A stretch of DNA of 32,000 nt from Nitrosospira multiformis ATCC 25196 (GTDB lineage Bacteria; Pseudomonadota; Gammaproteobacteria; Burkholderiales; Nitrosomonadaceae): the NCBI RefSeq assembly GCF_000196355.1, contig NC_007614.1, positions 420,001 to 452,000 of the forward strand. Reading direction: 5' to 3'. Shown here in pieces: positions 3,030-31,768 of this stretch. Position 1 is the stretch's first letter. Each line of letters begins with the position of its first letter. Position numbers and translations under genes: made by a program. The notes below the pieces were generated by a model, which had not been told where the DNA came from, ran no database searches, and was given only the letters and a program-made list of their open reading frames with translations.

Positions 3030-3111
3030 TAGAACCTCCTCAAAGTTAGAATCAGTGTATATGGTAAAACATCACAGGCAGTGAAAAGATCGAGACGAAT
3101 ATCTGCACTGC

Positions 3112-4566
3112 TCAGGATTCCACCTTCCGTTCCTGTTTTCTGTGCTCGCCGACCTTCACTATTTTCATCGTATTGGTGCCGCCTGCCTTGCCCACCGGTT
3201 CACCGATGGTCATGATCATTAGGTCGCCGTTGCGTACCGCGCCTCGTCTGAGCAACTCGTTTTCGGCATGATTCAGGATGATCTCCGGGTCGTTCGAGCC
3301 TCCGCCGAACTTGACGGGGTACACACCCCGAAATAACGTCATCTTGCGCCGTGTATCTTCCTGGGGACTCAGCGCGAATATGGGTACGGTGGAACTCCTG
3401 CGCGACATCAGCAACACGGTCCTGCCGCTTTGTGTAAGCGCCGCAATGGCCCTGATCTTCAATCCTCCTGCGGTGAACATGGTCGCACGGGCAATTGCTT
3501 CCTCGATATTGTCGGGCAGGCCGCCCTGCAGCCGTCGGTTTTCGCTGCTTACCAGGTATTCCTTTTCCGCCTCCAGGCATACCCTCGCCATCGCCGCAAC
3601 CGCTTCAACGGGATATTGGCCGGTGGCCGATTCCGCTGACAGCATCACCCCATCAGTGCCATCCAATACCGCATTTGCTACATCCGATACCTCCGCGCGG
3701 GTAGGGATGGGACTGCTGACCATGGACTCCATCATCTGGGTAGCTGTTACCACCAGCTTGTTCTTGGTTCGGGCAGTGCGAATCATTCGTTTTTGCAATG
3801 CCGGCACCGCTGCATCGCCTACCTCTACCGCAAGGTCTCCGCGCGCAACCATGATCGCATCGGAAGCCTCCAGAATGTCATCCAGCGCCAGGATGGCTTC
3901 CGATCGTTCGATCTTCGCCATCAATAAGCTTTTTCCGCCCGCCTCGCGCATCACATCGCGTGCCCAGCGCATATCATCGCCAGAACGGGGAAATGATACC
4001 GCCAGATAGTCGGCTTTAAGCGCTGCGGCCGTTCGGATATCTTCCACGTCCTTGCCGGTGAGGGCAGGAGCACTCAGGCCGCCGCCTTTGCGGTTGATTC
4101 CCTTGTTGTTGGACAGTATCCCACCTTGCTCAACCACGCAATAAACCTGGCTTCCCTTGACTTCGGAAACGCCGAGCACGATGCGTCCATCATCCAGGAT
4201 CAGTGTTGCACCGGTCTCGACATCATTGGGCAGTTCCTTGTAATCCAGGCCCACCCGTTCCTGGTTTCCAAGCTCGCATTCGGCGTCGAGTATGAATTGA
4301 TCGCCCGTTTTCAGCAGAATTTTATTATTTTCAAATTTGCCGATTCGAATCTTGGGTCCCTGCAAGTCCGCCAGCACACCTACTGCGTGGCCAGCGGCAC
4401 GTGCGAGGGAGCGCGCCAACTCGGCGCCTTCGATATGCTCTTCCCTGGTCCCATGGGAAAAGTTGATGCGTACTACATCAACGCCGGCGTTTATCATTCG
4501 CTCCAGCACCTTTGCATCTCGGGATGCGGGACCAAGTGTTGCTACGATTTTTGTTCTTCGAATCAT
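3112..4566 (-). CDS. pyk: Pyruvate kinase
   Basis: 484-aa ORF with MIRRTKIVATLGPAS, DLQGPKIR, MVARGDLAVE and TQMMESM motifs. Confidence 0.95.
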   Translation of the reverse strand: MIRRTKIVATLGPASRDAKVLERMINAGVDVVRINFSHGTREEHIEGAELARSLARAAGHAVGVLADLQGPKIRIGKFENNKILLKTGDQFILDAECELGNQERVGLDYKELPNDVETGATLILDDGRIVLGVSEVKGSQVYCVVEQGGILSNNKGINRKGGGLSAPALTGKDVEDIRTAAALKADYLAVSFPRSGDDMRWARDVMREAGGKSLLMAKIERSEAILALDDILEASDAIMVARGDLAVEVGDAAVPALQKRMIRTARTKNKLVVTATQMMESMVSSPIPTRAEVSDVANAVLDGTDGVMLSAESATGQYPVEAVAAMARVCLEAEKEYLVSSENRRLQGGLPDNIEEAIARATMFTAGGLKIRAIAALTQSGRTVLLMSRRSSTVPIFALSPQEDTRRKMTLFRGVYPVKFGGGSNDPEIILNHAENELLRRGAVRNGDLMIMTIGEPVGKAGGTNTMKIVKVGEHRKQERKVES

Positions 4567-4622
4567 TCTGATGAGGGCACGCGTTGAACCGGCATATCAA
4601 GCCGCATATTCGCTACCTGGAC

Positions 4623-5810
4623 CTATCTGCTGCCGGCTGCGCGCTGTTCGAGTATTTCCACGGCAGGTAACTTCTTGCCTTCCAGAAATTCCAGAAAGGC
4701 TCCCCCCGCAGTGGAAATGTAAGAAACCCTGTCATAAATATCGTATTTCTGGATAGCGGCAATGGTATCTCCCCCCCCTGCCAGGGTAAAGGCATCGGTA
4801 TCGGCGATAGCCATGGCAATGGTTTTGGTGCCTTCACCGAATTGATCGAACTCGAACACTCCGACGGGGCCGTTCCATACTACGGTACCGGCTTTCATGA
4901 TGATGTCCGACAACTCGCGGGCACTCTTCGGGCCGATATCGAATATCATATCGTCATCTGTTACCGCATCTGCATTCTTCAATACCGCCGGTTCACTGGC
5001 GTCGAATTTTTTCCCGACGACAACGTCAACGGCAATTGGAATGGTCGCATTCCGCTTTGCCATTTTTTCCATGAGCATTTTGGCGATGGGAACCAGATCA
5101 TCTTCGCACAGGGATTTTCCAACGTTCTGTCCCGCCGCTTTGAGGAAGGTATTGGCGATGCCGCCCCCCACCACCAGTTGATCCACTTTTTCTGACAGGG
5201 ATTCCAGAACGGTCAATTTTGTCGAGACCTTCGAGCCTCCGACGATCGCCACCATGGGGCGGGCTGGATTCAACAACGCCTTGGTCAGCGCGTCCAGCTC
5301 TTCTGTAAGCAGAATGCCCGCGCAGGCAACAGGAGCGTATTTGGCAATGCCATAGGTCGATGCTTCGGCCCGATGCGCTGTGCCAAACGCATCCATCACA
5401 AATACATCGCACAGCTTTGCATATTTCTGGGCCGTTTCATCTGCATTTTTCTTTTCCCCCTTATTGAAGCGGCAATTTTCGAGGATGACCAGTTCGCCTT
5501 CGGCCACGTCGAAGTTGCCGTCCACCCAATCCTTGATCAGGCGCGCCGGCTTGCCGAGACGTTCGGAAATATTGTCGGCTACCGGTTTGAGCGAATTTTC
5601 TTCTGACCATACGCCCTCTTCCGGTCGTCCCAGATGGGAGGTAACCATTACTTTGCCGCCTTGCTTCAGGCAGTAGTCGATGGTACCCATGGAGGCGCTG
5701 ATGCGTGCGTCGGAGGTAACTTTGCCATCTTTCACGGGCACATTGAGGTCGGCGCGGATGAACACGCGCTTGCCTTTCAGATCAAGGTCGGTGACTCTAA
5801 TGACAGACAC
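4623..5810 (-). CDS. pgk: Phosphoglycerate kinase (GTG start)
   Basis: 395-aa ORF with [17 protein letters not shown] and [14 protein letters not shown]-like motifs. GGAG lies 7 nt upstream of the GTG at 5810. Confidence 0.95.
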
Positions 5811-5833
5811 TGGGGAACTCCACGTTTTAAGAC

Positions 5834-5858
5834 ATAAGGAAGTCTAGGGATTCCTTAT
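5834..5858 (-). other. Intercistronic stem-loop (gap-pgk spacer)
   Basis: ATAAGGAA (5834-5841) pairs with TTCCTTAT (5851-5858), giving an 8-bp stem and a 9-nt loop. Confidence 0.35.
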
Positions 5859-5887
5859 GATGAATTGAAGAGAAGGACAGGGATCAG

Positions 5888-5919
5888 GGGGAAGAAAAAC
5901 GATTCCGAGTTTCTTCCCC
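5888..5919 (-). other. Intercistronic stem-loop just downstream of gap
   Basis: GGGGAAGAAA (5888-5897) pairs perfectly with TTTCTTCCCC (5910-5919), with a 12-nt loop. No clear U-run follows on the minus strand, so I do not call it a terminator. Confidence 0.4.
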
Positions 5920-5940
5920 GTGTGACGAATTGGTCCTCTG

Positions 5941-6945
<1,005 letters not shown>

Positions 6946-6976
6946 TTACACTCCTTGGATAAAAAAAGAACCTCGG

Positions 6977-7000
6977 ACGCGGAGAAAATTTTCTCCGCGT
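6977..7000 (-). terminator. Terminator-like/attenuator hairpin between tkt and gap
   Basis: Perfect palindrome ACGCGGAGAAAATTTTCTCCGCGT (12-bp arms). On the minus strand a T7 run follows, but only after a 9-nt gap, so termination is probably partial. Confidence 0.4.
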
Positions 7001-7022
7001 TTCGGCTGGCAATTGGTCAGAA

Positions 7023-9044
7023 TTAAATGACGCTGTTTACCGCCTTTATCACATTCTCTACGGTGATGCCGAAGTGCTTGAACAGCTCTCCAGCCGGCGC
7101 GGACTCGCCGAAGGTATCGATACCGACCACTGCTCCCTCCAGGCCTACATACTTGCGCCAGTAATCCGTCACGCCTGCTTCCACCGCCACGCGCCCTATA
7201 CCCTTGGGGAGCACGCTGCTTTTATAATCGACATCCTGGCGATCGAATACGTTCGTGCAGGGCATCGAAACGACGCGCACATGAATTCCCGTTTCGGCCA
7301 GCGCTTTTTGCGCCATCATCGCCAGGCCGACTTCCGAACCTGTGGCAATGATGACTGCCCGCGGTTGATTGTCGGAGGCTTCCGACAGGATATAGCCGCC
7401 CTTATCGATCAGCTTGATCGTATTCCCTTCGCGTTTCTGAAAGGGAAGGTTCTGGCGGCTGAAAATCAGTGTGGAGGGGCCATCCTTGCGCTCGATTGCC
7501 CGTGCCCAGGCGACGGTCGACTCGACCGTATCGCACGGACGCCACACATCCATGTTGGGGATGTAGCGCAATGTGGCGGTCTGTTCCACCGGCTGGTGGG
7601 TAGGACCATCTTCGCCCAAACCGATGGAATCATGGGTGAATACGAACAGGCAGCGTATTTTCATCAGGGCGGCCATGCGAAGCGCATTCCGCGCATATTC
7701 TGAGAACATGAGGAAAGTGGCGCCGTAAGGAATGATTCCGCCATGCAGCGCCAGCCCGTTCATGATGGCGCTCATGCCGAATTCGCGCACGCCGTAATAT
7801 ACGTAGTTGCCGCCATCCTGCCGGGCGATGCCTTTTGAACCCGACCAGAGGGTAAGGTTCGATCCGGCCAGATCTGCCGAGCCGCCGACCAGTTCCGGCA
7901 ACTTGGGTGCCAGTCCTTCAATCGCATTCTGCGATGCCTTGCGGCTTGCAATGGTTTCTTCCTTTGCATGAACACGTGCAACCAGGCCATCCACGTGCTC
8001 CTGCCACCCCTCCGGCAGTTCACCTGCCATCCGCCGACTGAATTCGGCCGCTTCAGTCGGATATTTCGCAGCGTACTCTGCGAACTTGCGATTCCAGCCG
8101 TCTTCCAGCTTTTGTCCTTTTGCGCGCGCATCCCAGTTCTGGTAGACATCCTCGGGGATCTCGAATGGCAGGTGATTCCACCCGATATGCGGGCGCGCAG
8201 CGGCTATTTCCAAGTCCCCCAGCGCCGCGCCGTGCACCTCGTGAGTATTTGCCTTGTTGGGCGAGCCCATTCCGATCACGGTCTTGCAGCAGATCATGGA
8301 AGGTTTGTCCACGGCCTGCTTGGCAGCTTCGATGGCGGCCTCTATCGCTACCGGATCATGTCCGTTGACATTCGGCACAACATGCCAACCATAGGCTTCG
8401 AAGCGTTTGGGCGTGTCGTCTGTGAACCATCCCTCCACATGCCCATCGATGGAAATGCCGTTGTCGTCATAAAAACAGATCAGCTTGCCCAGCCCCAATG
8501 TGCCTGCAAGCGAGCAGGCCTCATGGGAAATACCCTCCATCAGGCAGCCATCGCCCAGGAATACATAGGTATGGTGATTGACGATATCGAAGCCGGGACG
8601 GTTGAATTCCGAGGCAAGTATTTTCTCTGCCAGAGCCATTCCCACAGCATTGGTGATCCCCTGGCCCAGCGGACCTGTGGTCGTCTCGACGCCGGGTGTA
8701 TAACCATATTCCGGATGGCCGGGAGTCTTGGAATGAAGCTGACGGAAACGCTTGATTTCCTCCATCGGCAAATCGTAGCCCGTGAGGTGCAGCAGGGCGT
8801 AAATGAGCATGGATCCGTGCCCATTGGACAAAACGAAGCGGTCACGGTCGGCCCACTTCGGATTTGCCGGATTATGGCGTAGGTGATGTATCCACAATAC
8901 CTCAGCGATCTCAGCCATGCCCATAGGCATTCCCGGATGGCCCGAGTTGGCTTTTTGCACGGCATCCATCGCCAGTGCACGGATGGCGCTGGTCAGGTTC
9001 TTGAATACCGGCGCTTCAAAATCTCGAAATGTTCCCATGAACAT
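7023..9044 (-). CDS. tkt: Transketolase
   Basis: 673-aa ORF with [45 protein letters not shown] and the [16 protein letters not shown] motif. The start could instead be the second ATG at 9038, because the GGGAG spacing is 4 nt versus 10 nt. Confidence 0.95.
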
Positions 9045-20623: not shown

Positions 20624-20894
20624 GGGGGGGCGCCGATGGCTGATGGGTTTCGATGTAGGAGACGATATCCCCTACGGTGGTGAATCCCTTTGCTTCCTCG
20701 CTATCGAAATTGATGCCAAACGCATCTTCAGCGTCAAACAGAAGCTGTATCGTATCCATGGAGTCGAGTCCAAGTTCTTCAAATTTTGAAGAGCGGTTGA
20801 TAGTGGAAGCATCGAGATTCTCGACTTTTGTGGCAATGAATTGTATGACCTTTGCTTCAATCTCCGCTGTGTCCATATCTAGTTCTTCCTTCAT
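20619..20894 (-). CDS. Acyl carrier protein (dedicated, non-housekeeping context)
   Basis: 91-aa acidic ORF with the phosphopantetheine-attachment motif LGLDSMDTIQL. The start ATG overlaps the KAS stop (ATGA at 20891-20894). Confidence 0.85.
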   Translation of the reverse strand: MKEELDMDTAEIEAKVIQFIATKVENLDASTINRSSKFEELGLDSMDTIQLLFDAEDAFGINFDSEEAKGFTTVGDIVSYIETHQPSAPPQ

Positions 20895-22111
20895 GCAAGG
20901 GTTGTGAAAAGAATGCTCGCATTGTTGCCACCAAATCCGAAAGCGTTACACAAGCCGGTGCGGACACTTCTTTTCTGCGCAACGTTGGGGGTGTAGTCGA
21001 GGTCACACTCGGGATCGGCCTCATCAAGATTGATGGTCGGATGAATGGTGCCGGTATGAAGCGCCATGATGGTGGCGATACTGCCGATTGCTGCCGATGC
21101 GCCGATGGAATGCCCTACCATCGATTTGGTGGCGCTGATGGCAATGTCAGCAGCACGCGCTCCAAAAAGATTTTTTATTGCCCGCGTTTCGACTGTATCC
21201 CCCAGCGGTGTGGAAGTCGCATGCGCATTGATATGCTCAATGGAATCCAGCTCCATTCCCGCATCACGGATGGCTTCCTGCATGGCAGCGATCTGGCCTT
21301 CCATGTCGGGCATGACAATATGCGTTGCATCACATGCCTGTCCATAGCCGGCAAGCTCGGCATATATTTTTGCTCCCCGCTGGCGGGCCTGCTCTTCCTT
21401 CTCGAGGATCAGTATTCCCGCACCCTCTCCCATGACAAAACCATCGCGGCCTTTTGCGAAAGGACGCGAGGCTCTGGCTGGATTATCGTTGGAAGTGGTG
21501 GTCAGGGCGTGCAATATCTCAAAACCGTTGATGGTGAGCGGCAATACGCATGCTTCAGCACCGCCGGCGACCACAACGTCCGCTCTTCCTGCACGCAGGA
21601 GATCGAGTGCCGCACCGATGGCATTGGCTCCCGAAGAGCAAGCTGTACTGGAGGTCAGGTTCATGCCTTTGAACCCATGCCTGATCGCGATCCAGGCCGC
21701 AGCGGAGTTGGCCATTGTGCGTGGTACGGTGAAAGGCGGGACCGGCTGACTCCGAAACTTGCGCAGCGCGGACGATTCAAAGGTGGAAAAACCACCCATT
21801 CCCGAACCTATGCTCACCCCGATGCGGCGAGATTCATAAGCCTCAAGGCCGCCGGCGTCCTCGAGGGCAAGACGCGCAGCAAGCAGGGCAAGCTGGGTGA
21901 ACCTGTCGGTTTGCTCGATATACTTTTGAGAGAGGAAGGTTGAAGGATCAAAGTCCGTCACTTCTCCTGCAATTTGGGAACGCCTGCTCGATGCATCAAA
22001 GCTGGTTATCCTTTTTATTCCGCTCACACCCTTGACAGCGGCTGACCAGAACTGGTCAACCCCGATACCAATGGGGGAAACAACTCCCATTCCTGTAACG
22101 ACTACACGCAT
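20891..22111 (-). CDS. Beta-ketoacyl-ACP synthase, KAS I/II (FabF-like) family
   Basis: 406-aa ORF with MRVVVTGMGVVSPIG, the active-site Cys in TACSSGANAIG, the two His in NAHATSTPLGD and KSMVGHSIGASAA, and the C-terminal NAFGFGGNNASILF. Confidence 0.9.
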   Translation of the reverse strand: MRVVVTGMGVVSPIGIGVDQFWSAAVKGVSGIKRITSFDASSRRSQIAGEVTDFDPSTFLSQKYIEQTDRFTQLALLAARLALEDAGGLEAYESRRIGVSIGSGMGGFSTFESSALRKFRSQPVPPFTVPRTMANSAAAWIAIRHGFKGMNLTSSTACSSGANAIGAALDLLRAGRADVVVAGGAEACVLPLTINGFEILHALTTTSNDNPARASRPFAKGRDGFVMGEGAGILILEKEEQARQRGAKIYAELAGYGQACDATHIVMPDMEGQIAAMQEAIRDAGMELDSIEHINAHATSTPLGDTVETRAIKNLFGARAADIAISATKSMVGHSIGASAAIGSIATIMALHTGTIHPTINLDEADPECDLDYTPNVAQKRSVRTGLCNAFGFGGNNASILFTTLA

Positions 22112-22297
22112 ACAAAACCGGAAATAATCATGGGAATCTGCTCGACCTCATTATGGGGAGGTATTCAATGCAGCGAACAGGTGAGCGCTCGTTATGTAAT
22201 GGGCAGCCTAAATGAGCAGCGGAGTCCGCCCGGAATCGTTGACCGGCCATTGACTGAAGGCTTCCGGGTCTCACGGTTGCGCAGGACACTCGTATTG

Positions 22298-22552
22298 CTA
22301 TTTTGCGTTGAATATCATTGGGAACAGGTATCTCAATATGCCTCCCATAATCCAGATGACGAGTAATAAACTCGAGATGACCGCTGCCCCTTCGATAAGC
22401 GCTGACACGAGCGTTGCAGCCAAGCTATCGAATTCCTGTTGCCCGGCTTCGTTGCGCCGGCGCTTGCGGCGGTTCCTTACCCATACTTGCAGCCCGATAA
22501 CGACAGGAATAAGGGCGAGAGACACTAGCAGGTTATACTCAGAACTTTCCAT
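22298..22552 (-). CDS. Small two-TM membrane protein with a polybasic loop (hypothetical)
   Basis: 84-aa ORF with two hydrophobic helices flanking RNRRKRRRNE. GGAAGG lies about 10 nt upstream of the ATG. It is on the same strand as, and upstream of, KAS/ACP. I see no recognisable family. Confidence 0.45.
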   Translation of the reverse strand: MESSEYNLLVSLALIPVVIGLQVWVRNRRKRRRNEAGQQEFDSLAATLVSALIEGAAVISSLLLVIWIMGGILRYLFPMIFNAK

Positions 22553-22744
22553 CGATAATCAACCTTCCGCAAATAATCGTTACAGAATCCATTACCAGTC
22601 GCTGTTTTTTCTTTTACTTCATTCGCTATACTGCACCGCTCGTTTCCGGACTGAGTGCGCGAAGATCGCGGGGATAAATGCTGAAGTCCGCCCTCAGTTA
22701 GCAGACCGGCAATTATAATATCACACGTCAACAAGGTGTCATCG

Positions 22745-22760
22745 AGTTAACAAGTTAACA
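22745..22760. repeat. Tandem 8-mer AGTTAACA x2 (each contains the palindrome GTTAAC) in the divergent control region
   Basis: Read directly as gAGTTAACAAGTTAACAta. It lies 25 nt from a palindromic ATTATAAT (22712-22719). It is a candidate operator. Confidence 0.3.
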
Positions 22761-22926
22761 TATCCGCCCGGTATGGACGATTCTGCCGGGATTGGGTAAA
22801 GCAGAAACCGTTTCGATCTTCAACTCATTTTCGGGGCGCAGTCTTTCAAGGTACAAACGTTTCCGGTCTCCGGAGGCAATGCGACCGTGGAATATCCACG
22901 TCCGATCATCACTTGGCCAGTTTTAC

Positions 22927-24081
22927 ATGAAAAAAAAGATTAGCGGCCCGCACTTCCCGGAAGTCATTGTCCGTCCGGTCAGAAGCTATCGGGAAATGGG
23001 AATTTTTATCGATATTCCCTGGAGTATTTACGCTGACGATCCCATGTGGGTGCCTCCTTTACGGCTTGAGCGGCGACTACATTTTTCGAGATTCAATCCC
23101 TTTTTCAAGCACGGAAAATGGCAGGCCTGGATTGCATACAGGGATGATCAGCCGGTGGGAAGGATCAGCGCCCAGATCGATCAACTGCATCGGGAACGCT
23201 ACGGCGGTCATACCGGACATTTCGGTCTGTTCGAATGCATAGATGACAAGGAGGTTTCAGCCGCCCTCTTCCAGATGGCTGAGGCATGGCTGGGGGCGGA
23301 GCAGACGAGACATGTGACAGGCCCCTTCAATTTATCGATCAACCAGGAATGCGGCATATTGGTGGACGGTTTTGATAAGCCGCCAGTAGTGATGATGCCC
23401 CACTCCCGCAGATGGTACGGTCGCCTGCTGGAGGAACAAGGGTATCAACAGGCAAAGGATTTGCTTGCCTATTGGATAGAACTCGATTTCAAGGTGCCGC
23501 GGCTGATGGACGCCTTGATCGGTAAATTTGCGGATCAGGTGCACCTGAGAACTCTGCGCCGCGACAAGTTCAACGAGGAACTGGAAGTCCTGCGTGATAT
23601 ATTCAACGATGCCTGGTCCGAGAATTGGGGTTTCGTTCCTTTTACCCAGGCGGAGTTCGCGGAACTTGGCGCCAGCCTTCGCTTGCTCGTACCCGATGAT
23701 TGTATCCAGATTGCGGAGGTCGACGGGGTGCCCGCTGCGTTCATGGTGGCATTGCCAAACCTCAACGAAATTTTTGCCGAGCTGAACGGACACTTGTTTC
23801 CGTTTGGCTGGACCAGACTGGTCCGGATCAGATCCAGGGGAGGAGTGCGTACCGGTCGCATCCCATTAATGGGAGTACGCAGGCGCTTCCATAATACTCC
23901 GCTCGGTATGGCGCTTGCCTTCATGGTCATCGACGCGCCGAGGGAACTCGGACGAGTCATGGGAGTGAAGGCAATGGAATTATCCTGGATACTCGAGGAC
24001 AACAAACCCATGCGTGCCATTCTGGATAGTTTGGGCTGCAGGGAGTATAAACGTTACCGGATTTACCAGAAGATGCTGTGA
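22927..24081 (+). CDS. GNAT-like (apparently tandem acyl-CoA/acyl-ACP N-acyltransferase fold) protein, substrate unknown
   Basis: A 384-aa product if it starts at the ATG at 22927 (alternatives: ATG 22879, TTG 22792). The C-terminal half has a GNAT motif-A-like stretch (LMGVRRRFHNTPLGMALAFMV). The N-terminal half (QPVGRISAQID...GHFGLFECIDDKEVSAALFQMAEAWL) looks like a second, degenerate GNAT lobe. The family call is from motif resemblance only. Confidence 0.6.
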   Translation: MKKKISGPHFPEVIVRPVRSYREMGIFIDIPWSIYADDPMWVPPLRLERRLHFSRFNPFFKHGKWQAWIAYRDDQPVGRISAQIDQLHRERYGGHTGHFGLFECIDDKEVSAALFQMAEAWLGAEQTRHVTGPFNLSINQECGILVDGFDKPPVVMMPHSRRWYGRLLEEQGYQQAKDLLAYWIELDFKVPRLMDALIGKFADQVHLRTLRRDKFNEELEVLRDIFNDAWSENWGFVPFTQAEFAELGASLRLLVPDDCIQIAEVDGVPAAFMVALPNLNEIFAELNGHLFPFGWTRLVRIRSRGGVRTGRIPLMGVRRRFHNTPLGMALAFMVIDAPRELGRVMGVKAMELSWILEDNKPMRAILDSLGCREYKRYRIYQKML

Positions 24082-24127
24082 ATGCCGGATGGAGCAACTG
24101 AAGAACCGGAATCGGTAAAACGATGCA

Positions 24128-24976
24128 ATGAAAAAGAATGATCTGTTTACCGCCGTGGTGCTGGCAGCGGACCGCACGGCCCGCGATCCCATCTCCTTGG
24201 AAACGGGAGCACCCTGCAAGGCGTTCGCGCGCGTCGGAGGAATACCGATGATCATCCGCGTACTGGATGCGCTGGAAGCCAGCGGCATGGTGAAGAGCAT
24301 CATTTTGTGCGGGCCGCCCAAGTCCTTGCTGCCCGCTTGTCCGGAACTGCAGGAACGTATTCGCAATGGGCGCGTAGTCTGGCTGCCAAATCTCGATTCT
24401 CCCAGCCGCAGCGCTCGCAGCGGCCTCTCCCACGTGAATCAGGAGGCCCCGGTATTATTGACCACAGCCGACCACGCGTTGTTGACACCGGCCATCGTGC
24501 AATATTTTCTTCGCAACTCCCAGGCGTCGGATTGTGATGCTGCTGTCGGGGTCGTCAAATATGAAGATGTGGCAGCTGCATTTCCCGGGGCAAAGCGAAC
24601 GGTAATAAGGTTAAAGGATGCGAATATTTGCGGCTGCAACCTATATGCCTTTCTCAATGATCGCGGCCGCGGCCTCGTATCATTCTGGCAACGTGCGGAA
24701 GATCTGCGCAAGCGCCCGGTACGCTTGATCATGGAGACTTTCGGGTTTGCGACTGTCTTCTATTATCTGCTGGGGTTATTGACGATAGAAAGGGGATTGA
24801 GAGCAGTCAGAAGGAAAACCGGCATCAGGGCCCATCCGGTATTCCTGCCCTATCCTCAGGCGGGGGTCGATGTGGACAAGGTTGCAGATCTGGTACTTGC
24901 GGAATCGGTACTAGCGCGCAAGGCGCCGGCTGCCGGAGGAGGGTCCGATTTGCACGGACCCACTCCTGAAATGTGA
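24128..24976 (+). CDS. MobA-like (NTP_transf_3-type) nucleotidyltransferase family protein
   Basis: The N-terminus FTAVVLAADRTARDP...PCKAFARVGGIPMI resembles the LAGGxSxR...K..l...G.P.l signature. An internal LLTTADHALLTP and a C-terminal GVDVDKVADL are typical of this fold. Confidence 0.65.
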   Translation: MKKNDLFTAVVLAADRTARDPISLETGAPCKAFARVGGIPMIIRVLDALEASGMVKSIILCGPPKSLLPACPELQERIRNGRVVWLPNLDSPSRSARSGLSHVNQEAPVLLTTADHALLTPAIVQYFLRNSQASDCDAAVGVVKYEDVAAAFPGAKRTVIRLKDANICGCNLYAFLNDRGRGLVSFWQRAEDLRKRPVRLIMETFGFATVFYYLLGLLTIERGLRAVRRKTGIRAHPVFLPYPQAGVDVDKVADLVLAESVLARKAPAAGGGSDLHGPTPEM

Positions 24977-25009
24977 GAGGCTTGAATTCCGATCAACGCG
25001 ACAGGCAAC

Positions 25010-26086
25010 GTGAAAATAATAGAACGATATATCACGCGGGAACTGCTGATACCGTTTATGGTAGTCACCGTAATCCTTGCGACATTGTTTGCAAGTTTCA
25101 GTATGGCCCGTTTTCTTGCCGGAGCAGTGACAGATTCGCTTGGCCTTATCCCCGTGCTCAGGCTCGTGTTTCTGAAAACGCTGATCGCACTGGAAGTGCT
25201 GATGCCCATTGCCCTGTACGTGGCTGTCATCATGGGACTGGGTCGCCTGCACCGGGATCAGGAAATAGTCGTTTTGCGTTCCGCTGGGGTCAGCGAACAC
25301 CGCATTATCTATGCGGTGCTCATCGTTGCGATTCCTATGGGGCTTATCAGTGGTTTATTTTCCATTTTTGCGCGTCCATGGGCGTATGAGGAAAGCTACC
25401 TACTCAATGCCCAGGCAGAGGCAGAGTTGAATACGGATCGGTTCCGCGCCGGGCGTTTCTACGGCAGCGAAAAAAAAGGCCGGGTGATTTATGTGCAGGC
25501 CAAGGATAGCTCGGGCAAGCAGATGGGAGAGGTATTCCACTATCTGAACAAGCATGACAGCAGCGAGATCATTCTTGCCAAGAAAGCTCACCAGCCTGAG
25601 CTTGTGTTCGGCCAGCGCCCCCAGATACATCTGCTGGATGGCTCCATTTACCGGCTATCGCACACCGGAAAAGGCGATACCGTCGTCCAGTTTGAAAAGC
25701 TGGTTTATTTCACGGACAGCGGAAACGTAACGGATTACAGGCGCAAGGCTGCCTCTACCGCGGCATTGATGCAATCTGATCAGCCGCGGGATACTGCCGA
25801 GCTTCAGTGGCGGCTGTCGCGCCCGCTGGCAACGATCCTGCTGGCGCTGATAGCGGTGCCCTTCAGCCGCGCTTCACCCCGCCAGACAAAGGGAGATAAG
25901 ACTTATTATCTGGCAGCTCTGGTTTTCGCCATTTACTACATTTTGAGCGGATTGGCCCAGACTTGGGTCGAGCAGGGCACGATCGGGAGGGTGCCGGGTG
26001 TGTGGTGGCTCTATGCTGTCATGCTGCTGTTTGCAATCTCGTTATTATCGCCTGGTTTCTGGCGGAAGTTGCCTTTGCGCAGATGA
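25010..26086 (+). CDS. LptF-like permease (YjgP/YjgQ family), GTG start
   Basis: MKIIERYITRELLIPF has an LptF-type N-terminus. Three TM segments are followed by a roughly 130-aa soluble insert and three more TM segments, and the conserved ELQWRLSRPLATILLALIAVPFS...PRQ block is present. Confidence 0.8.
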   Translation: MKIIERYITRELLIPFMVVTVILATLFASFSMARFLAGAVTDSLGLIPVLRLVFLKTLIALEVLMPIALYVAVIMGLGRLHRDQEIVVLRSAGVSEHRIIYAVLIVAIPMGLISGLFSIFARPWAYEESYLLNAQAEAELNTDRFRAGRFYGSEKKGRVIYVQAKDSSGKQMGEVFHYLNKHDSSEIILAKKAHQPELVFGQRPQIHLLDGSIYRLSHTGKGDTVVQFEKLVYFTDSGNVTDYRRKAASTAALMQSDQPRDTAELQWRLSRPLATILLALIAVPFSRASPRQTKGDKTYYLAALVFAIYYILSGLAQTWVEQGTIGRVPGVWWLYAVMLLFAISLLSPGFWRKLPLRR

Positions 26087-27147
26087 CAATAATTTACCGC
26101 TACCTGGGGCTCCAGGTTTTGATGGGTCTGGGAATCGCTACCGCGGTGCTTCTGCCGCTCTTCGGTTTCCTTGATTTGCTGGATCAGCTCGATGACGTGG
26201 GAAAGGGCACGTACAGCGTCAAGGATGCGTTTCTTTATACGGCTCTACTGCTGCCGCGACGGTTTATTCAACTCGCGCCTTTCATTGCATTGATGGGCAA
26301 TGTAACTGCATTGGGAAGGCTTGCCGTCGGATCGGAACTGACGGCATTACGAGGAGCAGGGGTATCTCCGCTGGGCATCAGTCTCGCGCCGGTTGTCGTT
26401 GGAATAATTCTTTTACTGTTTATTACTGTACTGGATCAGTTCGTGGCGCCGCAATTTCAGCAGAAAGCCATTTCATCCCGCGCAGCCGCGCTCGAGAAGA
26501 GCGCCGCGCTTGGCCAACAATTAGGGATATGGACGCGGGATGAGCGGAATATACTGCGAATCGGAGAAATGCTGCATGCGAGAAGGGCGGCGAACATCGA
26601 AATAATGCATTTTGACGACAATGGCTTCCTGTTACGCTATACGTATGCCAAGTATGCTGATATCATAAACGAGGGGTTGTGGGAGTTAAGGGACGTCGTC
26701 ATCAAGACATTCAACGGCAATGCCATGGAGATCGTAAGCAGAGAATCGGTACCCTGGGAACCCTTCCTGAAGGAGGAGGATATCTCGACGTTGACCAAAT
26801 CGCCGGAAAGTCTCTCACCCGCCGAGTTATTTTTGCATGTGCATTTTCTGCGCGCCACGGGTCAGGAATCGGGCGCTTATGAGCTGGCGTTGTGGCGCAA
26901 GGCGGGTGGTGCCCTGACGACCATCGCGATGCTGTTGCTTTCGATTCCCTTTGTTTTTGGATCGGTGCGGGCAGGGCTCGGCAACCGACTCGTGGTTGCA
27001 TCGATGCTTGGAATCAGCGTCTATCTCTTCGACCAGATCACTGCCAATGCCGGCTTGTTACTGCATTTGAATCCGGCGCTGAGCGCACTTCTTCCAGGAG
27101 GGGTGCTGATCGCCGTAGCTTATTTCTGGTTACGGCGAATTTTTTAA
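26083..27147 (+). CDS. LptG-like permease (YjgP/YjgQ family)
   Basis: Start taken at the ATG at 26083, which overlaps the upstream TGA (ATGA). MTIIYRYLGLQV...LDQLDDVGKGTYSVKDA...SELTALRGAGVS and the C-terminal LWRKAGGALTTIAMLLLSIPFVFGSVRAG...YLFDQI closely resemble the LptG layout. Confidence 0.8.
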   Translation: MTIIYRYLGLQVLMGLGIATAVLLPLFGFLDLLDQLDDVGKGTYSVKDAFLYTALLLPRRFIQLAPFIALMGNVTALGRLAVGSELTALRGAGVSPLGISLAPVVVGIILLLFITVLDQFVAPQFQQKAISSRAAALEKSAALGQQLGIWTRDERNILRIGEMLHARRAANIEIMHFDDNGFLLRYTYAKYADIINEGLWELRDVVIKTFNGNAMEIVSRESVPWEPFLKEEDISTLTKSPESLSPAELFLHVHFLRATGQESGAYELALWRKAGGALTTIAMLLLSIPFVFGSVRAGLGNRLVVASMLGISVYLFDQITANAGLLLHLNPALSALLPGGVLIAVAYFWLRRIF

Positions 27148-27273
27148 CAAACCCCGGATTTGTTCACGATTTTCTTGACCTGAATGCCTGCCGCAATCTC
27201 GCGGAGCACTTGCAAAACCTATCAATTGACAACTCCAGACACAGAGATAAGCAAGCAGCTGGCGGATTCGTCG

Positions 27274-28467
27274 ATGCCTGTTTATATCCACATCATTGGC
27301 GACAGCGAAACCGATATCTGGGGCTTGAGTGGCCGGGAACGCCTGCAGCGCATGTTAAAAGCATTCGCCGGGACGAGGCTGGTTGACAATCCAGCACGGA
27401 TTCCCGCTCCTGCCTCGGCACTGCTTTTACGCGGGGATTATCTTTTTGACGCTATCGTGCTGGACGCGCTGCTCAAAGCAAAAACAGATCTTATGCTCGT
27501 CAGCGATGAGGATAAGCCAGTCGCAGTGCGGATTTCCGGTGAGAACGTGCATCAGGTGCTTGCCGAATTTGCAGGCGAAGGACAAAATCTTTCTTCCTTG
27601 CGGCGTTATGAACTGGGAGAGCTCGGTCTGCCAAATCTACGCCAGAACCTCAAGAAAAGAGATGCCCCTTACGTTTTACCGATCAGCAGGAACAGCCGCT
27701 GCAATCTGGAGTCAGAGCTCTTCAAACGGTCTTACAAAGGGGTGACCGACTTTGTGACAAAGTGGCTTTGGCCAGCGCCTGCATTTCATGCGGTACACTT
27801 CTGCATCCGTATGGGTCTGCGCCCCAACCATATTACACTGCTCAGTCTTTTGTTTGCTGTGCTGGCCGGGGTTGCGTTCTGGTATGGTTTCTATGGGTCG
27901 GGACTGGTGATGGGATGGTTCATGACCTTCCTGGACACCGTCGACGGCAAACTGGCACGGGTAACCGTTACTTCCAGCCGCTTCGGTGACGTGCTCGACC
28001 ACGGCCTGGATATCATTCATCCGCCGCTCTGGTACATTGCCTGGGGGGTGGGGTTGTCCGCCGACTATTCCTTATCCTCGCATCTGCCCCTATTATTCGC
28101 GCTGATTCTTATCGGTTACATCGGCGGACGGCTGTGTGAGGGAGCATTCCAGTTCTGGGTCGCGTCATTCGATATTTTTATCTGGCGTCCACTGGATTCC
28201 TTCAATCGGCTCATTACTGCCCGCCGCAACCCCAATCTTGTTCTGCTGACATTCGGCTGGCTGGCGGGAAGGCCGGATATCGGCCTTTTGTCCGTCGTGA
28301 TCTGGCACTTGCTTTCGACCGGTTTTCTCTTGGTGAGAGTGGCGATGGGATGGGTATCGCGCCGGTCGTGTGGACCCTTGCATTCCTGGTTTGAGGAGAT
28401 CGTTGGGGGACAGGATGAAGGAAAGCTGGCCGTTCGTATTTTTGCACCTTTAAAATCACGTAAATGA
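27274..28467 (+). CDS. CDP-alcohol phosphatidyltransferase family protein with a ~170-aa N-terminal cytoplasmic extension
   Basis: The canonical motif D-x2-D-G-x2-A-R-x8-G-x3-D-x3-D is read as DTVDGKLARVTVTSSRFGDVLDHGLD, and the C-terminal half is multi-TM. I prefer the start ATG at 27274 (MPVYIHIIGD, GGCGGA upstream) over 27184. Confidence 0.85.
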   Translation: MPVYIHIIGDSETDIWGLSGRERLQRMLKAFAGTRLVDNPARIPAPASALLLRGDYLFDAIVLDALLKAKTDLMLVSDEDKPVAVRISGENVHQVLAEFAGEGQNLSSLRRYELGELGLPNLRQNLKKRDAPYVLPISRNSRCNLESELFKRSYKGVTDFVTKWLWPAPAFHAVHFCIRMGLRPNHITLLSLLFAVLAGVAFWYGFYGSGLVMGWFMTFLDTVDGKLARVTVTSSRFGDVLDHGLDIIHPPLWYIAWGVGLSADYSLSSHLPLLFALILIGYIGGRLCEGAFQFWVASFDIFIWRPLDSFNRLITARRNPNLVLLTFGWLAGRPDIGLLSVVIWHLLSTGFLLVRVAMGWVSRRSCGPLHSWFEEIVGGQDEGKLAVRIFAPLKSRK

Positions 28468-29480
28468 CAGAAAGATCACGGGTCGATAGATTGAAGTCTG
28501 GAACAGGATCCGTCGGATTGCTTTTCAATCCGCTCAGTGGGCGCATCCGTAAGCGGAAGGAGGCGATCCGGCGGGCGGCGGAGGAGATTCCCGGTGCTTG
28601 CAGGGAAGTGACGAATGCTCGAGAAATCAGCGCGTCGGTGGATACGTTCGTGAACGATGGCACGGATCTCCTGATCATTATCGGCGGGGATGGCACGGTA
28701 CAGGGTGTACTGTCCCATCTGTTCGCCACTCAGCCTTTGGCAAAGTGGCCCGTCCTGACGATAGTGCCTGGCGGTACAACCAACATGACCGCGCTCGATC
28801 TCGGCATAAGAGGGAGCCCGGAATCCGTCCTGCGGCAATTGAGCGCCTCCTTTCAAAAAGATTTCCCCTCCGCGCTCGTGGAGCGTCATGTTCTTTGCAT
28901 AGAACAGGCCGGCGCGGAGAAGGTTTATGGGATGTTTTTCGGCGTGGGACTCATCGCCCGCGCCGTGATCTTTTCCCAGAGCAGGATAAAGCGGTTGGGT
29001 ATTACCGGAGAAATCTACTCTGCTCTTATCACCTTCGGTTATGTTGCAGGCTTCCTGCTCGGGCGGCGTCAGGGAGCATGGGCCCCGGTCCGGATGACCA
29101 TTACCGAGAAAACCTTATCCCGGCCCCATGGAACCTACGCGTTTCTTTTCGCCAGCACCCTCGACCGTCTGTTGTTCGGCATGAGGCCATACTGGGGCGG
29201 GCAACCGGAGCCGCTGCACGTCACATTCGTCAGGCAGCAGCGGCAGCTTCCCTTGCGTTCCGTGCTCCGGTTGTTGATAGGACGTGGAAACGATCTCAAG
29301 GACAAGGATGGTTATCATAGTTGCAACACCGATGAACTGGAGTTGCTGATCGATGACGATTACATCGTCGACGGCGAGTCTTATCGTGCCACCAGTCAGG
29401 GTGGACCCTTGCGCATTACGCCTGCTGGCCCGATCATCTTTCTGGCGGCGGAGAGGGCGGCCGCAAACGCAAAATCATGA
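28464..29480 (+). CDS. Diacylglycerol-kinase-catalytic-domain lipid kinase (LCB5/YegS-like)
   Basis: GLLFNPLSGR followed by LLIIIGGDGTVQGV, the DAGK_cat signature. It is a soluble 338-aa protein. The start overlaps the upstream stop (ATGA at 28464-28467). Confidence 0.85.
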   Translation: MTERSRVDRLKSGTGSVGLLFNPLSGRIRKRKEAIRRAAEEIPGACREVTNAREISASVDTFVNDGTDLLIIIGGDGTVQGVLSHLFATQPLAKWPVLTIVPGGTTNMTALDLGIRGSPESVLRQLSASFQKDFPSALVERHVLCIEQAGAEKVYGMFFGVGLIARAVIFSQSRIKRLGITGEIYSALITFGYVAGFLLGRRQGAWAPVRMTITEKTLSRPHGTYAFLFASTLDRLLFGMRPYWGGQPEPLHVTFVRQQRQLPLRSVLRLLIGRGNDLKDKDGYHSCNTDELELLIDDDYIVDGESYRATSQGGPLRITPAGPIIFLAAERAAANAKS

Positions 29481-30463
29481 GTATTCTTCAAGGGGCTGCA
29501 ACAGCAGATCCGCCGCTTCCCGAAGGTTTGATTTCGGAGATGGCGACACTGAGTTCAAATACGGTATCCGCGGATTTTCTCGTTTTGCTCGAGGCGTTGA
29601 AATTGCGCTTCGGTTCAGCCCTCGACGCTGTGCTTCTTTATGGATCGTGCCTGCGCGCGCGTGAGATAGGGGATGGGGTGGTCGATTTTTACGCGGTTGT
29701 GAGCAGTTACAGCAGTGCTTACCCGGAGCGCTATCTGCGCTATTTCAACACATTGCTACCTCCGAATGTCTTTTATCTGGAGGTATCCCAAGAGGAGAAA
29801 ACGTTTCGCGCCAAGTATGCGGTGGTTTCAATGGCTGACTTCGAGCAGGGGACCCGTCGCTGGTTCCATCCTTATCTCTGGGCGCGTTTTGCTCAGCCCT
29901 CGAGGTTATTATTTTTCCGCGACGAGGCTGCTCGCAAGCGAATTTCGGAGTCTCTAGCCCATGCGGTCGTCACTTTTCTCGGATCCACCCTGCCTACCCT
30001 CGATTGTTCCGGGACCGGAGCGACTACCACCGAAATGATCTGGACCAATGGATTGACCCAGACCTACGCGGCGGAATTGCGGCCGGAGAGAGCAGGGCGC
30101 GCGCGCCAGCTCGCACAGATGAACCTGGAGGTCTATTCACGCCTGACTACCCTGGCAGTACCTGCACTGGCAGGAAAATTGATGCCCCTCCCGGATGGAA
30201 GTTACGAATCTCTGATAGACGATGCAGGACGTCGGAAGTCACTTTGGCACTGGCAGCTGCGGCGTTGGCAGGGAAAAGTCCTGTCCGTGCTGCGGCTGTC
30301 AAAGGCGGCTTTTACCTTTCATGACAGCATTAGCTATGCGGCCTGGAAAATCGAGCGCCACACCGGTATTCGCGTCGAGGTGACTCCTATGCTACGGCGC
30401 CATCCCCTGTTGTGGGGTTTCAAAGTTTCCTGGCGCCTGCTGCGGCGTGGCGTATTACGCTGA
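29477..30463 (+). CDS. Pol-beta-type nucleotidyltransferase-fold protein resembling the Tam41/Mmp37 phosphatidate cytidylyltransferase family
   Basis: 328-aa ORF whose start overlaps the upstream stop (ATGA at 29477-29480). It has an NTase-like LLYGSCLRAREIGDGVVDFYAVV. The blocks PPNVFYLEV...KYAVVSMADFEQG...W...YLWARFAQPSRLLF parallel my recollection of yeast Tam41 (GAGVYFNP...KYGVVSMETLLKDI..W..FYLAGRLQKPVKIL). The coding call is firm; the family call is from memory. Confidence 0.55.
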   Translation: MSILQGAATADPPLPEGLISEMATLSSNTVSADFLVLLEALKLRFGSALDAVLLYGSCLRAREIGDGVVDFYAVVSSYSSAYPERYLRYFNTLLPPNVFYLEVSQEEKTFRAKYAVVSMADFEQGTRRWFHPYLWARFAQPSRLLFFRDEAARKRISESLAHAVVTFLGSTLPTLDCSGTGATTTEMIWTNGLTQTYAAELRPERAGRARQLAQMNLEVYSRLTTLAVPALAGKLMPLPDGSYESLIDDAGRRKSLWHWQLRRWQGKVLSVLRLSKAAFTFHDSISYAAWKIERHTGIRVEVTPMLRRHPLLWGFKVSWRLLRRGVLR

Positions 30464-30562
30464 CAGTGAAGCAATCACGAGCGGAATTCGACATCAAAAG
30501 CCGGGATTGAGCGCGGCACACGATATAGCGTCCGGTATGCGTAAACAATTCTTCCAGGCGGA

Positions 30563-31768
30563 TCATGAGTACGCTTCCGCTTCAGCGGAGTCATGTCGTA
30601 TGGTTTCTCTTGATCGGAGAATCAAGTCGCATACCTCGCGAACCGCGCCGTGGCCACCCGAATATTCACACATATAATGGGCCTGCCGCACGACCAGGGG
30701 GACAGCATCCGCCGGGCAGAAGGCAACGCCTACGCGGCTCAGGCATTCCAGATCGCTGAGGTCATCACCCACATACCCGATATTTTCCAGAGGAACCCCC
30801 CAGCGTTTGGAAAGCTTTAGGAGGAGAGGAAATTTATCGCTTATGCCCGGGTAGTATTCGTCGATGCGCAATTTTCTCATCCTTGCTTCAACGGAAGGAC
30901 TAGTCTCGGTGGTGATTACGCAAACCCCGAGGCCATGTTCACGCAACCGTTGCAAACCATGGGCGTCGCGAGTATTGAATTTTTTCAAGGCTTCGCCGGC
31001 GGGGCCGTAATACATTCCCGCATCCGTCAACGTTCCGTCCACATCGAGTACCAGAAACTTGATTCGTGACGCGCGGGCTTGGACCGACCCCCGTTCCTGC
31101 TCCCGTAAAAGACGCTCCACGATGTTCCAGCCAGCCTCTCCGGTGATCTCGATCGCAGTTTCGGGCGCCATCTCGTGAATACCCATGCGTCCACCCAGAT
31201 AATGATCGTTGTCTCGAAGTAATTTTTCATGTGTCAGATAGAAGGCGCCATTTTCCAGCAGGTATCCCTCCGGATTCGATGCATCGCATGACGCACGGGA
31301 TTTTAGCGGGTCATGACCGACGGGTTCTCCCATCCTTGTCCACAGAAACCGTCTGGACGGCGCAGCTGTCAGAAGCGAGTCAAGATTTTCCGAAAGAAAT
31401 TTGCGCTTAGCGGCACGAAAATCTTCAGCACGCGTGAGGGGCGAGGCTGCCTGTATTGAACAGACGACGTCGAAGGGGATCTTCTGCTGAAACGTGTGTA
31501 GGAGACTGGTCCAATTCTCTACGCCCGTACGGGTTGCGCCACTGCAATCGAGAATCTCGATTATCGTGTCGGCTCGCGAAAATTCTTCCACTATCCGTTT
31601 TCGAATGACAGGCGGGTCGGCAGTTACGTAAATGGTGTCGAAACATCCCGATATGACGGCCTGCTCCAAGCTCCAGGAAAATAATGGCCTTCCCGCCATG
31701 CTGCGTGCGCTGCTTCGGGAAACCGGCCCGAAATTTCCATGCAAAGGCGCGAAAGCTACCCAGCGCAT
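30563..31768 (-). CDS. Bifunctional acylneuraminate cytidylyltransferase-like (NeuA/CTP_transf_3) + KdsC-type HAD phosphatase
   Basis: The N-terminal half has SIQAASPLTRAEDF and LENGAFYLT (NeuA-like). The C-terminal half has FLVLDVDGTLTD, FNTRDAHG, YVGDDLSDLECL and GGHGAVREVCDLIL, very close to KdsC. The start overlaps the neuB-like stop by 1 nt (TGATG). Confidence 0.85.
   Translation of the reverse strand: MRWVAFAPLHGNFGPVSRSSARSMAGRPLFSWSLEQAVISGCFDTIYVTADPPVIRKRIVEEFSRADTIIEILDCSGATRTGVENWTSLLHTFQQKIPFDVVCSIQAASPLTRAEDFRAAKRKFLSENLDSLLTAAPSRRFLWTRMGEPVGHDPLKSRASCDASNPEGYLLENGAFYLTHEKLLRDNDHYLGGRMGIHEMAPETAIEITGEAGWNIVERLLREQERGSVQARASRIKFLVLDVDGTLTDAGMYYGPAGEALKKFNTRDAHGLQRLREHGLGVCVITTETSPSVEARMRKLRIDEYYPGISDKFPLLLKLSKRWGVPLENIGYVGDDLSDLECLSRVGVAFCPADAVPLVVRQAHYMCEYSGGHGAVREVCDLILRSRETIRHDSAEAEAYS

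Follow-up and report, generated by a model that had tools for sequence, protein, structure and literature searches.

A distant Tam41-like nucleotidyltransferase, very probably a CpgC orthologue, in a candidate sphingolipid head-group cluster of Nitrosospira multiformis

The stretch of 32,000 nucleotides of the Nitrosospira multiformis ATCC 25196 genome analyzed here (contig NC_007614.1, positions 420,001 to 452,000; the window) encodes, at 29477-30463 of the forward strand, a 328-residue nucleotidyltransferase (NTase) whose gene starts with ATG and directly follows genes for a CDP-alcohol phosphatidyltransferase and a lipid kinase. On which lipid does this enzyme, the target of the present analysis, act, and by what chemistry? 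A preliminary description of the locus had read the three genes as a route to CDP-diacylglycerol (CDP-DAG) independent of CdsA. Profile comparisons and a structural model support the target as a real but distant bacterial relative of the Tam41/Mmp37 enzymes, representing an outlying, divergent branch on the margin of the Pfam family, and the gene context makes it very probably an orthologue of CpgC, which functions in the synthesis of ceramide phosphoglycerate (CPG), within a sphingolipid head-group cluster.

Relationship of the protein to Tam41

The target displays the motif YGSCLRAREIGDGVVDF, in which G56-S57 is followed by 12 residues and D70 (G-S-x12-D), as the preliminary description had read it. 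Among the candidates scored, 5857 homologues reach E<=1e-3, and clustering of the family at 50% identity yields 1325 clusters with E<=1e-3, 473 of them with E<=1e-30, so the open reading frame is not a chance one. The closest named homologues are proteins of Nitrosospira and Nitrosovibrio; the identity of the target to the Nitrosospira multiformis protein is 93-94%. In an alignment of 34 diverse relatives of the target (30-46% identity), G56, S57 and D70 are invariant, as are K113, R137 and R202, and position 72 of the target, where a second carboxylate would be, is occupied by Tyr. Tam41 keeps just one of the three acidic residues of NTases (PMC11646218), and the combination of an invariant D70 with a Tyr at the second carboxylate position therefore fits the published single-acid description.

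The predicted layout of the target comprises (i) an NTase domain at about residues 30-150, (ii) a winged-helix-like domain at about 150-248, and (iii) a basic amphipathic C-terminal region at 249-328. The latter carries a net charge of +14, with 18 Arg/Lys and six Trp residues; the best amphipathic helix spans residues 309-326, with a hydrophobic moment of 0.56, and no transmembrane segment is predicted in the target, the Kyte-Doolittle 19-residue average peaking at 1.4. Both the succession of a Pol-beta NTase domain and a winged-helix domain and the basic amphipathic C-terminus free of a transmembrane helix are thus as in Tam41, for which a basic amphipathic membrane anchor is described (PMC7018664). 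On this basis the target is proposed to be a soluble enzyme of Tam41 architecture that would bind the membrane peripherally.

A search with the target sequence alone returned no Pfam or NCBIfam match at E<=0.1, and profiles built from homologues were needed for that reason. Its own best Pfam match is PF09139 (Tam41_Mmp37), at 11.8 bits and E=0.15, below the gathering score of 24 bits, so that the single-sequence comparison suggested by the preliminary description came out negative. The same family is the best match for all 20 close homologues examined (best E=1.6e-5) and the sole Pfam family matched by the 34 diverse relatives, four of which reach E<=1e-3; one relative, P0135, clears the cut-off with 34.3 bits. 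When the profile of the 34 relatives was compared with the sequences of the PDB, Schizosaccharomyces pombe Tam41 (6IG2 and 6IG4) was matched at E=1.5e-5 and 27.6 bits, target residues 89-220 aligning with residues 136-264 of these structures. In the HMMER alignment to 6IG2, KYAVVS faces KYGVTS, YLWARFAQPxRLL faces MYLAGRFQKPVVIL, WARFAQP faces AGRFQKP, and TYAAELRPE faces SYLGDIR..AE, placing the KY.V.S, RF..P and Y..[DE].R..E motifs in register with Tam41 and bearing out the parallels that the preliminary description had drawn. K113, R137, P141, Y197, E200 (Asp in Tam41), R202 and E204 align with identical or similar Tam41 residues.

The AF2 model of the target (pLDDT 82, pTM 0.82) leads to the same family, and the structural comparison thereby agreed with what the preliminary description expected. 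The five best Foldseek matches are all Tam41 structures, namely S. pombe 6IG4/6IG2 and the CTP-Mg complex 7ECD from a Firmicutes bacterium, with E-values from 1.4e-7 to 8e-7 and TM-scores of 0.45-0.59; aminoglycoside NTases rank after them, with TM-scores of 0.29-0.36.

The modelled architecture of NTase and winged-helix domains is thus common to the target, to Tam41/Mmp37/TAMM41 (6IG2, 6IG4) and to the Firmicutes Tam41 (7ECD), as are the G-S...D motif with what is probably a single catalytic Asp, the KY.V.S, R-F-x-x-P and Y-x-x-[DE]-x-R motifs, and the basic amphipathic C-terminus suited to peripheral membrane binding. The differences are nevertheless substantial. Sequence identity amounts to just 13-14%, and the target family possesses a conserved C-terminal block of its own, AAWKIERHTG...TP.LRRHP; the C-terminal region, with Y287, W290, K291 and H295 invariant among the 34 relatives, has no counterpart in the crystallised Tam41 constructs, which carry 74-residue C-terminal deletions. 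In addition, the genomic context of the target points to ceramide-1-phosphate and not to phosphatidic acid. With CdsA, which converts a lipid phosphomonoester and CTP into a CDP-lipid and pyrophosphate, the target would share the outline of the reaction if the chemistry proposed below is right, but CdsA is an integral membrane protein of unrelated fold, and nothing in this analysis suggests that the target replaces it.

The seven-gene block and the ceramide-phosphoglycerate cluster

The target is the last gene of a block of seven (22792-30463), all on the forward strand. The block opens with a homologue of the bacterial ceramide synthase (bCerS/CerS, CC_1154 type; 22792-24081, 429 residues as listed), assigned by homology to a gene of the Roseomonas spt locus and matching nothing in Pfam or NCBIfam, and with a MobA-like NTP transferase (24128-24976; Pfam NTP_transf_3, E=2.8e-17), the counterpart of Caulobacter CC_1153, a CofC-like protein needed for CPG2 (PMC11324152). 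Two permeases come next, LptF (25010-26086; Pfam LptF_LptG, E=1e-68; NCBIfam LptF equivalog, 347.7 bits, cut-off 230) and LptG (26083-27147; LptF_LptG, E=2.2e-62; NCBIfam LptG equivalog, 327.2 bits, cut-off 240), the likely ATG start of LptG at 26083 overlapping the lptF stop as ATGA. They are followed by a CpgA-type CDP-alcohol phosphatidyltransferase (27184-28467; CDP-OH_P_transf, E=3.1e-09, residues 214-304), a CpgB-type lipid (ceramide) kinase of the DAGK_cat family (28464-29480; E=6.7e-17) and the CpgC-type target. The kinase gene overlaps both neighbours: at 28464-28467 (AAATGACAG) the transferase stop is joined to the kinase start, and at 29477-29480 (TCATGAGT) the kinase stop is joined to the target start, each as ATGA. 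Both couplings, and the families of the two upstream genes, had been read correctly in the preliminary description.

This order reproduces a published one. In Caulobacter, cpgA, cpgB and cpgC lie in succession as CCNA_01217, 01218 and 01219 (PMC9393093), and the three overlapping window genes keep the same operon order. CpgA (CCNA_01217) has a PgsA-type CDP-alcohol transferase domain and turns CPG into CPG2, CpgB (CCNA_01218) is a ceramide kinase, and CpgC (CCNA_01219/CC_1161) is needed for the conversion of ceramide phosphate to CPG (PMC9393093; PMC12275187). Deletion of cpgC abolishes CPG and CPG2 and leaves ceramide phosphate in place (PMC9393093, PMC11324152), CC_1161 carries the InterPro Tam41 entry IPR015222, and an NDP-activated ceramide intermediate has been proposed (PMC11324152).

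The link to the ammonia-oxidizing relatives is likewise published, a 2024 table (S2D) listing the Nitrosomonas eutropha orthologues of the Caulobacter genes with their BLAST values (PMC11324152): Neut_1100 corresponds to CerS (CC_1154; 41%, 5e-105), Neut_1101 to CC_1153 (33%, 7e-36), Neut_1102 to LptF2 (CC_1156; 24%, 1e-09), Neut_1103 to LptG2 (CC_1155; 33%, 6e-15), Neut_1104 to CpgA (CC_1159; 41%, 5e-75), Neut_1105 to CpgB (CC_1160; 25%, 2e-22) and Neut_1106 to CpgC (CC_1161; 32%, 2e-38). By protein family, the window segment 22792-30463 is Neut_1100-1106 in gene order.

Compared with the Caulobacter cluster, in which CpgC (listed orthologues Neut_1106, Swit_3902 and HNE_1589) is likewise third after a CDP-alcohol transferase and a DAGK-like ceramide kinase and is accompanied by CerS, a MobA-like NTase and LptF/G, the window displays several differences. 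The host is a betaproteobacterium, the core ceramide genes do not adjoin the block, and counterparts of CC_1158, CC_1166-1168 and lptC2 are missing from it. Furthermore, the LptF2/G2 copies of the Caulobacter cluster are diverged paralogues, whereas the window LptF and LptG both pass their NCBIfam equivalog models and score as canonical; in Sphingomonas wittichii, a single LptFG has been proposed to serve both lipopolysaccharide (LPS) and sphingolipid, and Nitrosomonadaceae could either do likewise or possess a second pair.

A connection to ceramide synthesis proper is found in other lineages. A locus of Roseomonas mucosa, located by tblastn on a plasmid, comprises genes for an NTP transferase, a hypothetical protein, two LptF/G permeases, a CDP-alcohol transferase, a diacylglycerol kinase-family protein and a further hypothetical protein, followed by GT39, a pyridoxal phosphate-dependent aminotransferase (Spt), an acyl carrier protein, a short-chain dehydrogenase/reductase (SDR) and a fatty acyl-AMP ligase. 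The window proteins match their Roseomonas counterparts at 46.7% identity (E=7e-102) for the CerS-like protein, 33% (E=8e-40) for the MobA-like NTase, 39% (E=2e-72) for the CDP-alcohol transferase, 28% (E=5e-24) for the kinase and 34% (E=6e-42) for the target, which finds the gene in the same position; for LptF and LptG the similarity is weak (E=4e-06 and 1e-04), and a single permease is hit by the two. Homologues of spt, cerR or aasR occur within 10 kb of a target homologue in about 20 loci. Among these, Nitrosomonas sp. Nm51 carries an aasR-cerR-acpR-spt group that begins about 4 kb downstream of the target homologue (end of the homologue at 10945, aasR at 15054), and a Longimicrobiales metagenome-assembled genome (MAG) has spt immediately upstream. 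The Nitrosomonas proteins bear the NCBI name serine palmitoyltransferase.

Conservation of the block was followed in 80 related genomic loci onto which the window proteins were mapped by tblastn, presence being counted wherever 9 kb or more of upstream sequence was available, which was the case in 59 loci. The CerS-like protein was found in 53 of them, the MobA-like NTase in 47, LptF in 50, LptG in 52, the kinase in 53 and the CDP-alcohol transferase in 44. The seven-gene order is kept from Nitrosomonadaceae to gammaproteobacterial MAGs, Nitrococcus mobilis, Nitrospirales, Desulfobacterales and Hyphomicrobiales; the Nitrosomonas loci share it, with target counterparts 55-57% identical. The tight coupling to a lipid kinase that the preliminary description stressed recurs across the family: in 70 of 76 loci the kinase immediately precedes the Tam41-like gene, and annotation adds two plasmid loci. 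Of 72 loci, on the other hand, 21 have no transferase gene in the cluster, among them those of Nitrosospira briensis and Nitrococcus mobilis; all 21 retain the Tam41-like gene, and most of them also the kinase right before it. This pattern mirrors the argument made for Zymomonas, which has no CC_1159 and is expected to stop at CPG (PMC11324152); the loci without the transferase could belong to producers of CPG only, or the gene could lie elsewhere in the genome.

Two natural gene fusions involve the family. P0121 (L084, 4390-6378) is a DAGK_cat::Tam41-like protein of 662 residues, seen on two metagenome contigs right after a CDP-alcohol transferase gene; it could also be a frameshift across the ATGA overlap instead of a true fusion. 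P0238 (L083, 7364-9148), seen on one contig behind a ketoacyl synthase gene, joins a MobA-like NTase to a Tam41-like half in 594 residues, and its N-terminal half is 35% identical to the window MobA-like NTase (E=2e-44). The fusions lend weak support to a cytidylylation of ceramide-1-phosphate.

Several features of the loci deserve separate mention. In the gammaproteobacterial MAGs L066 and L080 no kinase gene lies between the CDP-alcohol transferase and Tam41-like genes, the order in the Longimicrobiales MAG L059 is aasR, spt, Tam41-like, CerS-like and CDP-alcohol transferase, and many loci outside Nitrosomonadaceae add a metallophosphoesterase, a gene of the phosphocholine-cytidylyltransferase family (CpgD-like) and a HIT protein. 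Within the window, the listed start of the CerS-like gene is a TTG, and an ATG (M46, MKKKISGPHF...) occurs at 22927; homologues in at least 50 loci align only from residue 44-58 onward, for which reason the true start is probably the ATG, the TTG being an over-extension. A hairpin of 11 pairs followed by ATTTTTT at 27110-27138 (+), at the 3' end of lptG and before the CDP-alcohol transferase gene, suggests two transcription units, cerS-NTase-lptFG and cpgABC; a promoter and terminator scan of 22000-31000 gave counts at chance level. The catalytic region of the CDP-alcohol transferase (about residues 205-310) comes after an N-terminal extension of about 200 residues, placed in the cytoplasm, whose residues 1-200 (window 27184-27800) match nothing in Pfam or NCBIfam. 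The extension is kept in the Roseomonas homologue, the alignment beginning at residue 45 of the window protein, and by analogy with IPCT-DIPPS fusions it could represent a degenerate nucleotide-binding domain.

Proposed reaction and rival explanations

The best overall explanation, and a fairly probable one, is that the target is a CpgC orthologue acting in the synthesis of the anionic head group of ceramide (di)phosphoglycerate, a sphingolipid of the outer membrane, by a mechanism comprising five steps: (i) the CpgB-type kinase would convert ceramide to ceramide-1-phosphate, a reaction shown biochemically for Caulobacter CpgB; (ii) the Tam41-like enzyme would move CMP from CTP to ceramide-1-phosphate, giving CDP-ceramide and pyrophosphate, as its homology suggests and by analogy with the action of Tam41 on phosphatidic acid; (iii) glycerate or phosphoglycerate would displace CMP to give CPG; (iv) the CpgA-type transferase would add a second phosphoglycerate from CDP-glycerate, in keeping with Caulobacter genetics and CpgD biochemistry; and (v) the LptFG of the block would extract the lipid for transport to the outer membrane. 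Taken by itself, the cytidylylation of ceramide-1-phosphate by the target is a more tentative assignment, drawn from sequence and not quite as probable as its negation. The lipid substrate is most likely ceramide phosphate and not a component of an ordinary phospholipid bypass; ceramide is preferred over diacylglycerol because deletion of cpgC retains ceramide phosphate and deletion of cpgB leaves phosphatidic acid unchanged. Ceramide-1-phosphate, which the preliminary description had offered as an alternative substrate, is accordingly a better guess than phosphatidic acid.

Three other readings have to be weighed against this one. The target could be a bacterial Tam41 to which the neighbouring kinase delivers phosphatidic acid and whose product, CDP-DAG, is used by the neighbouring CDP-alcohol phosphatidyltransferase, in a glycerophospholipid route independent of CdsA. 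The Tam41-like fold and motifs are compatible with it, a passage of PMC11646218 citing Kimura 2022 credits a Firmicutes Tam41 homologue with making CDP-DAG, some close homologues of the target bear the UniRef name phosphatidate cytidylyltransferase, and Caulobacter CpgB phosphorylates diacylglycerol in vitro at a rate comparable to that with ceramide (PMC10331486). The route is improbable all the same, since the block itself includes a ceramide synthase homologue and follows the order of Neut_1100-1106, spt, acpR, cerR and aasR adjoin it in other lineages, the Caulobacter cpgC mutant accumulates ceramide phosphate, and the cpgB mutant shows no change in phosphatidic acid (PMC9393093, PMC10331486). 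Nor does the CDP-alcohol transferase behave as the final, CDP-lipid-consuming step that the preliminary description had made of it: a Caulobacter cpgA deletion still makes the first product, CPG, and loses only CPG2 (PMC9393093), CpgA is thought to take its second phosphoglycerate from CDP-glycerate made by CpgD (PMC12275187), and the gene is missing from the cluster in the 21 loci mentioned above. The borderline placement of the family with respect to PF09139, with just four of 34 relatives at E<=1e-3, also speaks against a plain Tam41. Of the three-step module that had been envisaged, the linkage of the three chemistries stands, while the simple chain ending at the CDP-alcohol transferase does not.

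A stronger competitor, though still an unlikely one, holds that CpgC releases no CDP-lipid, and either activates and condenses within one site or uses a nucleotide-activated donor, produced by the MobA/CofC-like NTase, to add (phospho)glycerate to ceramide-1-phosphate. An enzyme dedicated to the first condensation has yet to be described (PMC12275187, PMC11324152), the P0238 fusion unites a CC_1153-like NTase with a Tam41-like protein, the conserved C-terminal residues Y287, W290, K291 and H295 fall in a region absent from the crystallised Tam41 constructs, and Caulobacter cpgC mutants show cofitness with gluconeogenesis genes (PMC11324152). Set against these points, a CC_1153 deletion still makes CPG, so the MobA-like NTase is not needed for the CpgC step (PMC11324152), enzymes of the NTase fold typically transfer a nucleoside monophosphate, and the residues that the target has in common with Tam41 are those of the conserved motifs. 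Very improbable indeed is a chance neighbourhood of lipid genes and an unrelated small-molecule or defence NTase, such as an aminoglycoside nucleotidyltransferase, an antitoxin of the MNT type or a CD-NTase-like protein. Foldseek does return ANT(4'), AadA, LinB and Hailong HalB (E from 3e-5 to 1e-2), and the family profile weakly matches the small NTase domain protein 9xbd (E=0.006) in the region of the G-S motif only; those structures, however, superpose with TM-scores of 0.22-0.36, against 0.45-0.59 for Tam41, the synteny with lipid genes is kept across phyla, the orthologue has a published lipid phenotype (PMC9393093), and no PADLOC defence model matches the target.

Several points weigh against the favoured reading of the target as a CpgC orthologue that cytidylylates ceramide-1-phosphate. 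The target alone fails the Pfam threshold for Tam41, and the TM-scores of its model to Tam41 stay at about 0.5. The assignment to CpgC is indirect, being based on the published N. eutropha BLAST values together with synteny and the plasmid loci of Roseomonas and Qipengyuania. Searches of the Nitrosospira loci out to 10 kb recovered neither spt nor cerR, acpR or aasR, and with the Spt of Nitrosomonas sp. Nm51 as query the best 120 homologues were all from Nitrosomonas (78-100% identity). The comparable use of diacylglycerol by CpgB in vitro makes phosphatidic acid a chemically possible substrate. Finally, to our knowledge CDP-ceramide has not been observed in any organism.

Surroundings of the block and implications

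The neighbourhood of the block differs on its two sides. Downstream and convergent with the target, 30563-31768 on the minus strand encodes an acylneuraminate/CMP-sugar cytidylyltransferase domain fused to a KdsC-type phosphatase (KdsC model, E=4.6e-46), after which the N. multiformis locus L001 displays NeuB, a PLD-like protein, GT2 and a Kdo hydroxylase; the region resembles a variable nonulosonic-acid/LPS locus and does not share the conservation of the cpg block. Upstream, 20891-22111 (minus strand) encodes a FabF-type beta-ketoacyl-ACP synthase II (equivalog, 520.6 bits; cut-off 493.75) divergent from the CerS-like gene. It keeps this position beside the CerS-like gene in Nitrosospira loci, and the ketoacyl synthase directly upstream of the P0238 fusion in L083 is of note here; the FabF-type enzyme might supply sphingolipid acyl chains or might be the housekeeping fabF. 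Weak SDR matches near the Nitrosospira loci L003 and L017 were considered as CerR and rejected as partial (about 155 residues, 30% identity).

The segment 199-20508 is housekeeping in character. Its minus strand carries fba, pyk, pgk, gap and tkt (1965-9044), and its other genes encode a CYTH-CHAD protein (199-1758), NtrY/NtrX-like two-component proteins and a DUF4390 protein, or are rsmB, fmt, def, dprA and topA. The presence of glycolytic genes whose products make 3- and 2-phosphoglycerate, at least 13 kb from the cpg block, is probably a coincidence.

Much of the framework in which the target is placed was published between 2022 and 2025, namely the gene family, the Tam41 domain of CC_1161, the operon partners, the N. 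eutropha cluster and the NDP-ceramide hypothesis; a literature search on Nitrosospira and sphingolipid returned nothing relevant. The present analysis adds (i) the Nitrosospira member, (ii) structural and profile support for kinship with Tam41, (iii) the anatomy of a putative single-Asp active site and a basic tail, (iv) the fusions, (v) a much wider taxonomic spread, and (vi) the canonical-scoring LptF/LptG within the block. CpgC is, according to the 2025 CpgD paper in JBC, the one step of bacterial CPG synthesis whose chemistry is unassigned, and the published idea that it works like Tam41 is backed here by profile homology, the structural match, the putative single-Asp site, the basic tail and the fusions.

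As a general proposal, put forward with somewhat less confidence than the cytidylylation in Nitrosospira itself, CpgC-type Tam41 homologues might be ceramide-1-phosphate cytidylyltransferases that make CDP-ceramide, in a widespread route tied in many lineages to canonical LptFG. If this is true, the route would span the 1325 clusters of the family, reaching Nitrospirales, Desulfobacterales and Gemmatimonadota, and anionic sphingolipids would exit the inner membrane via LptFG, the extractor of LPS. Confirmation would make CDP-ceramide a new kind of activated lipid, the counterpart in bacteria of CDP-DAG. The organisms predicted to make anionic sphingolipids now include Nitrosospira together with many lineages that are uncultured, a prediction that bears on the outer-membrane biology and the polymyxin sensitivity of nitrifiers.

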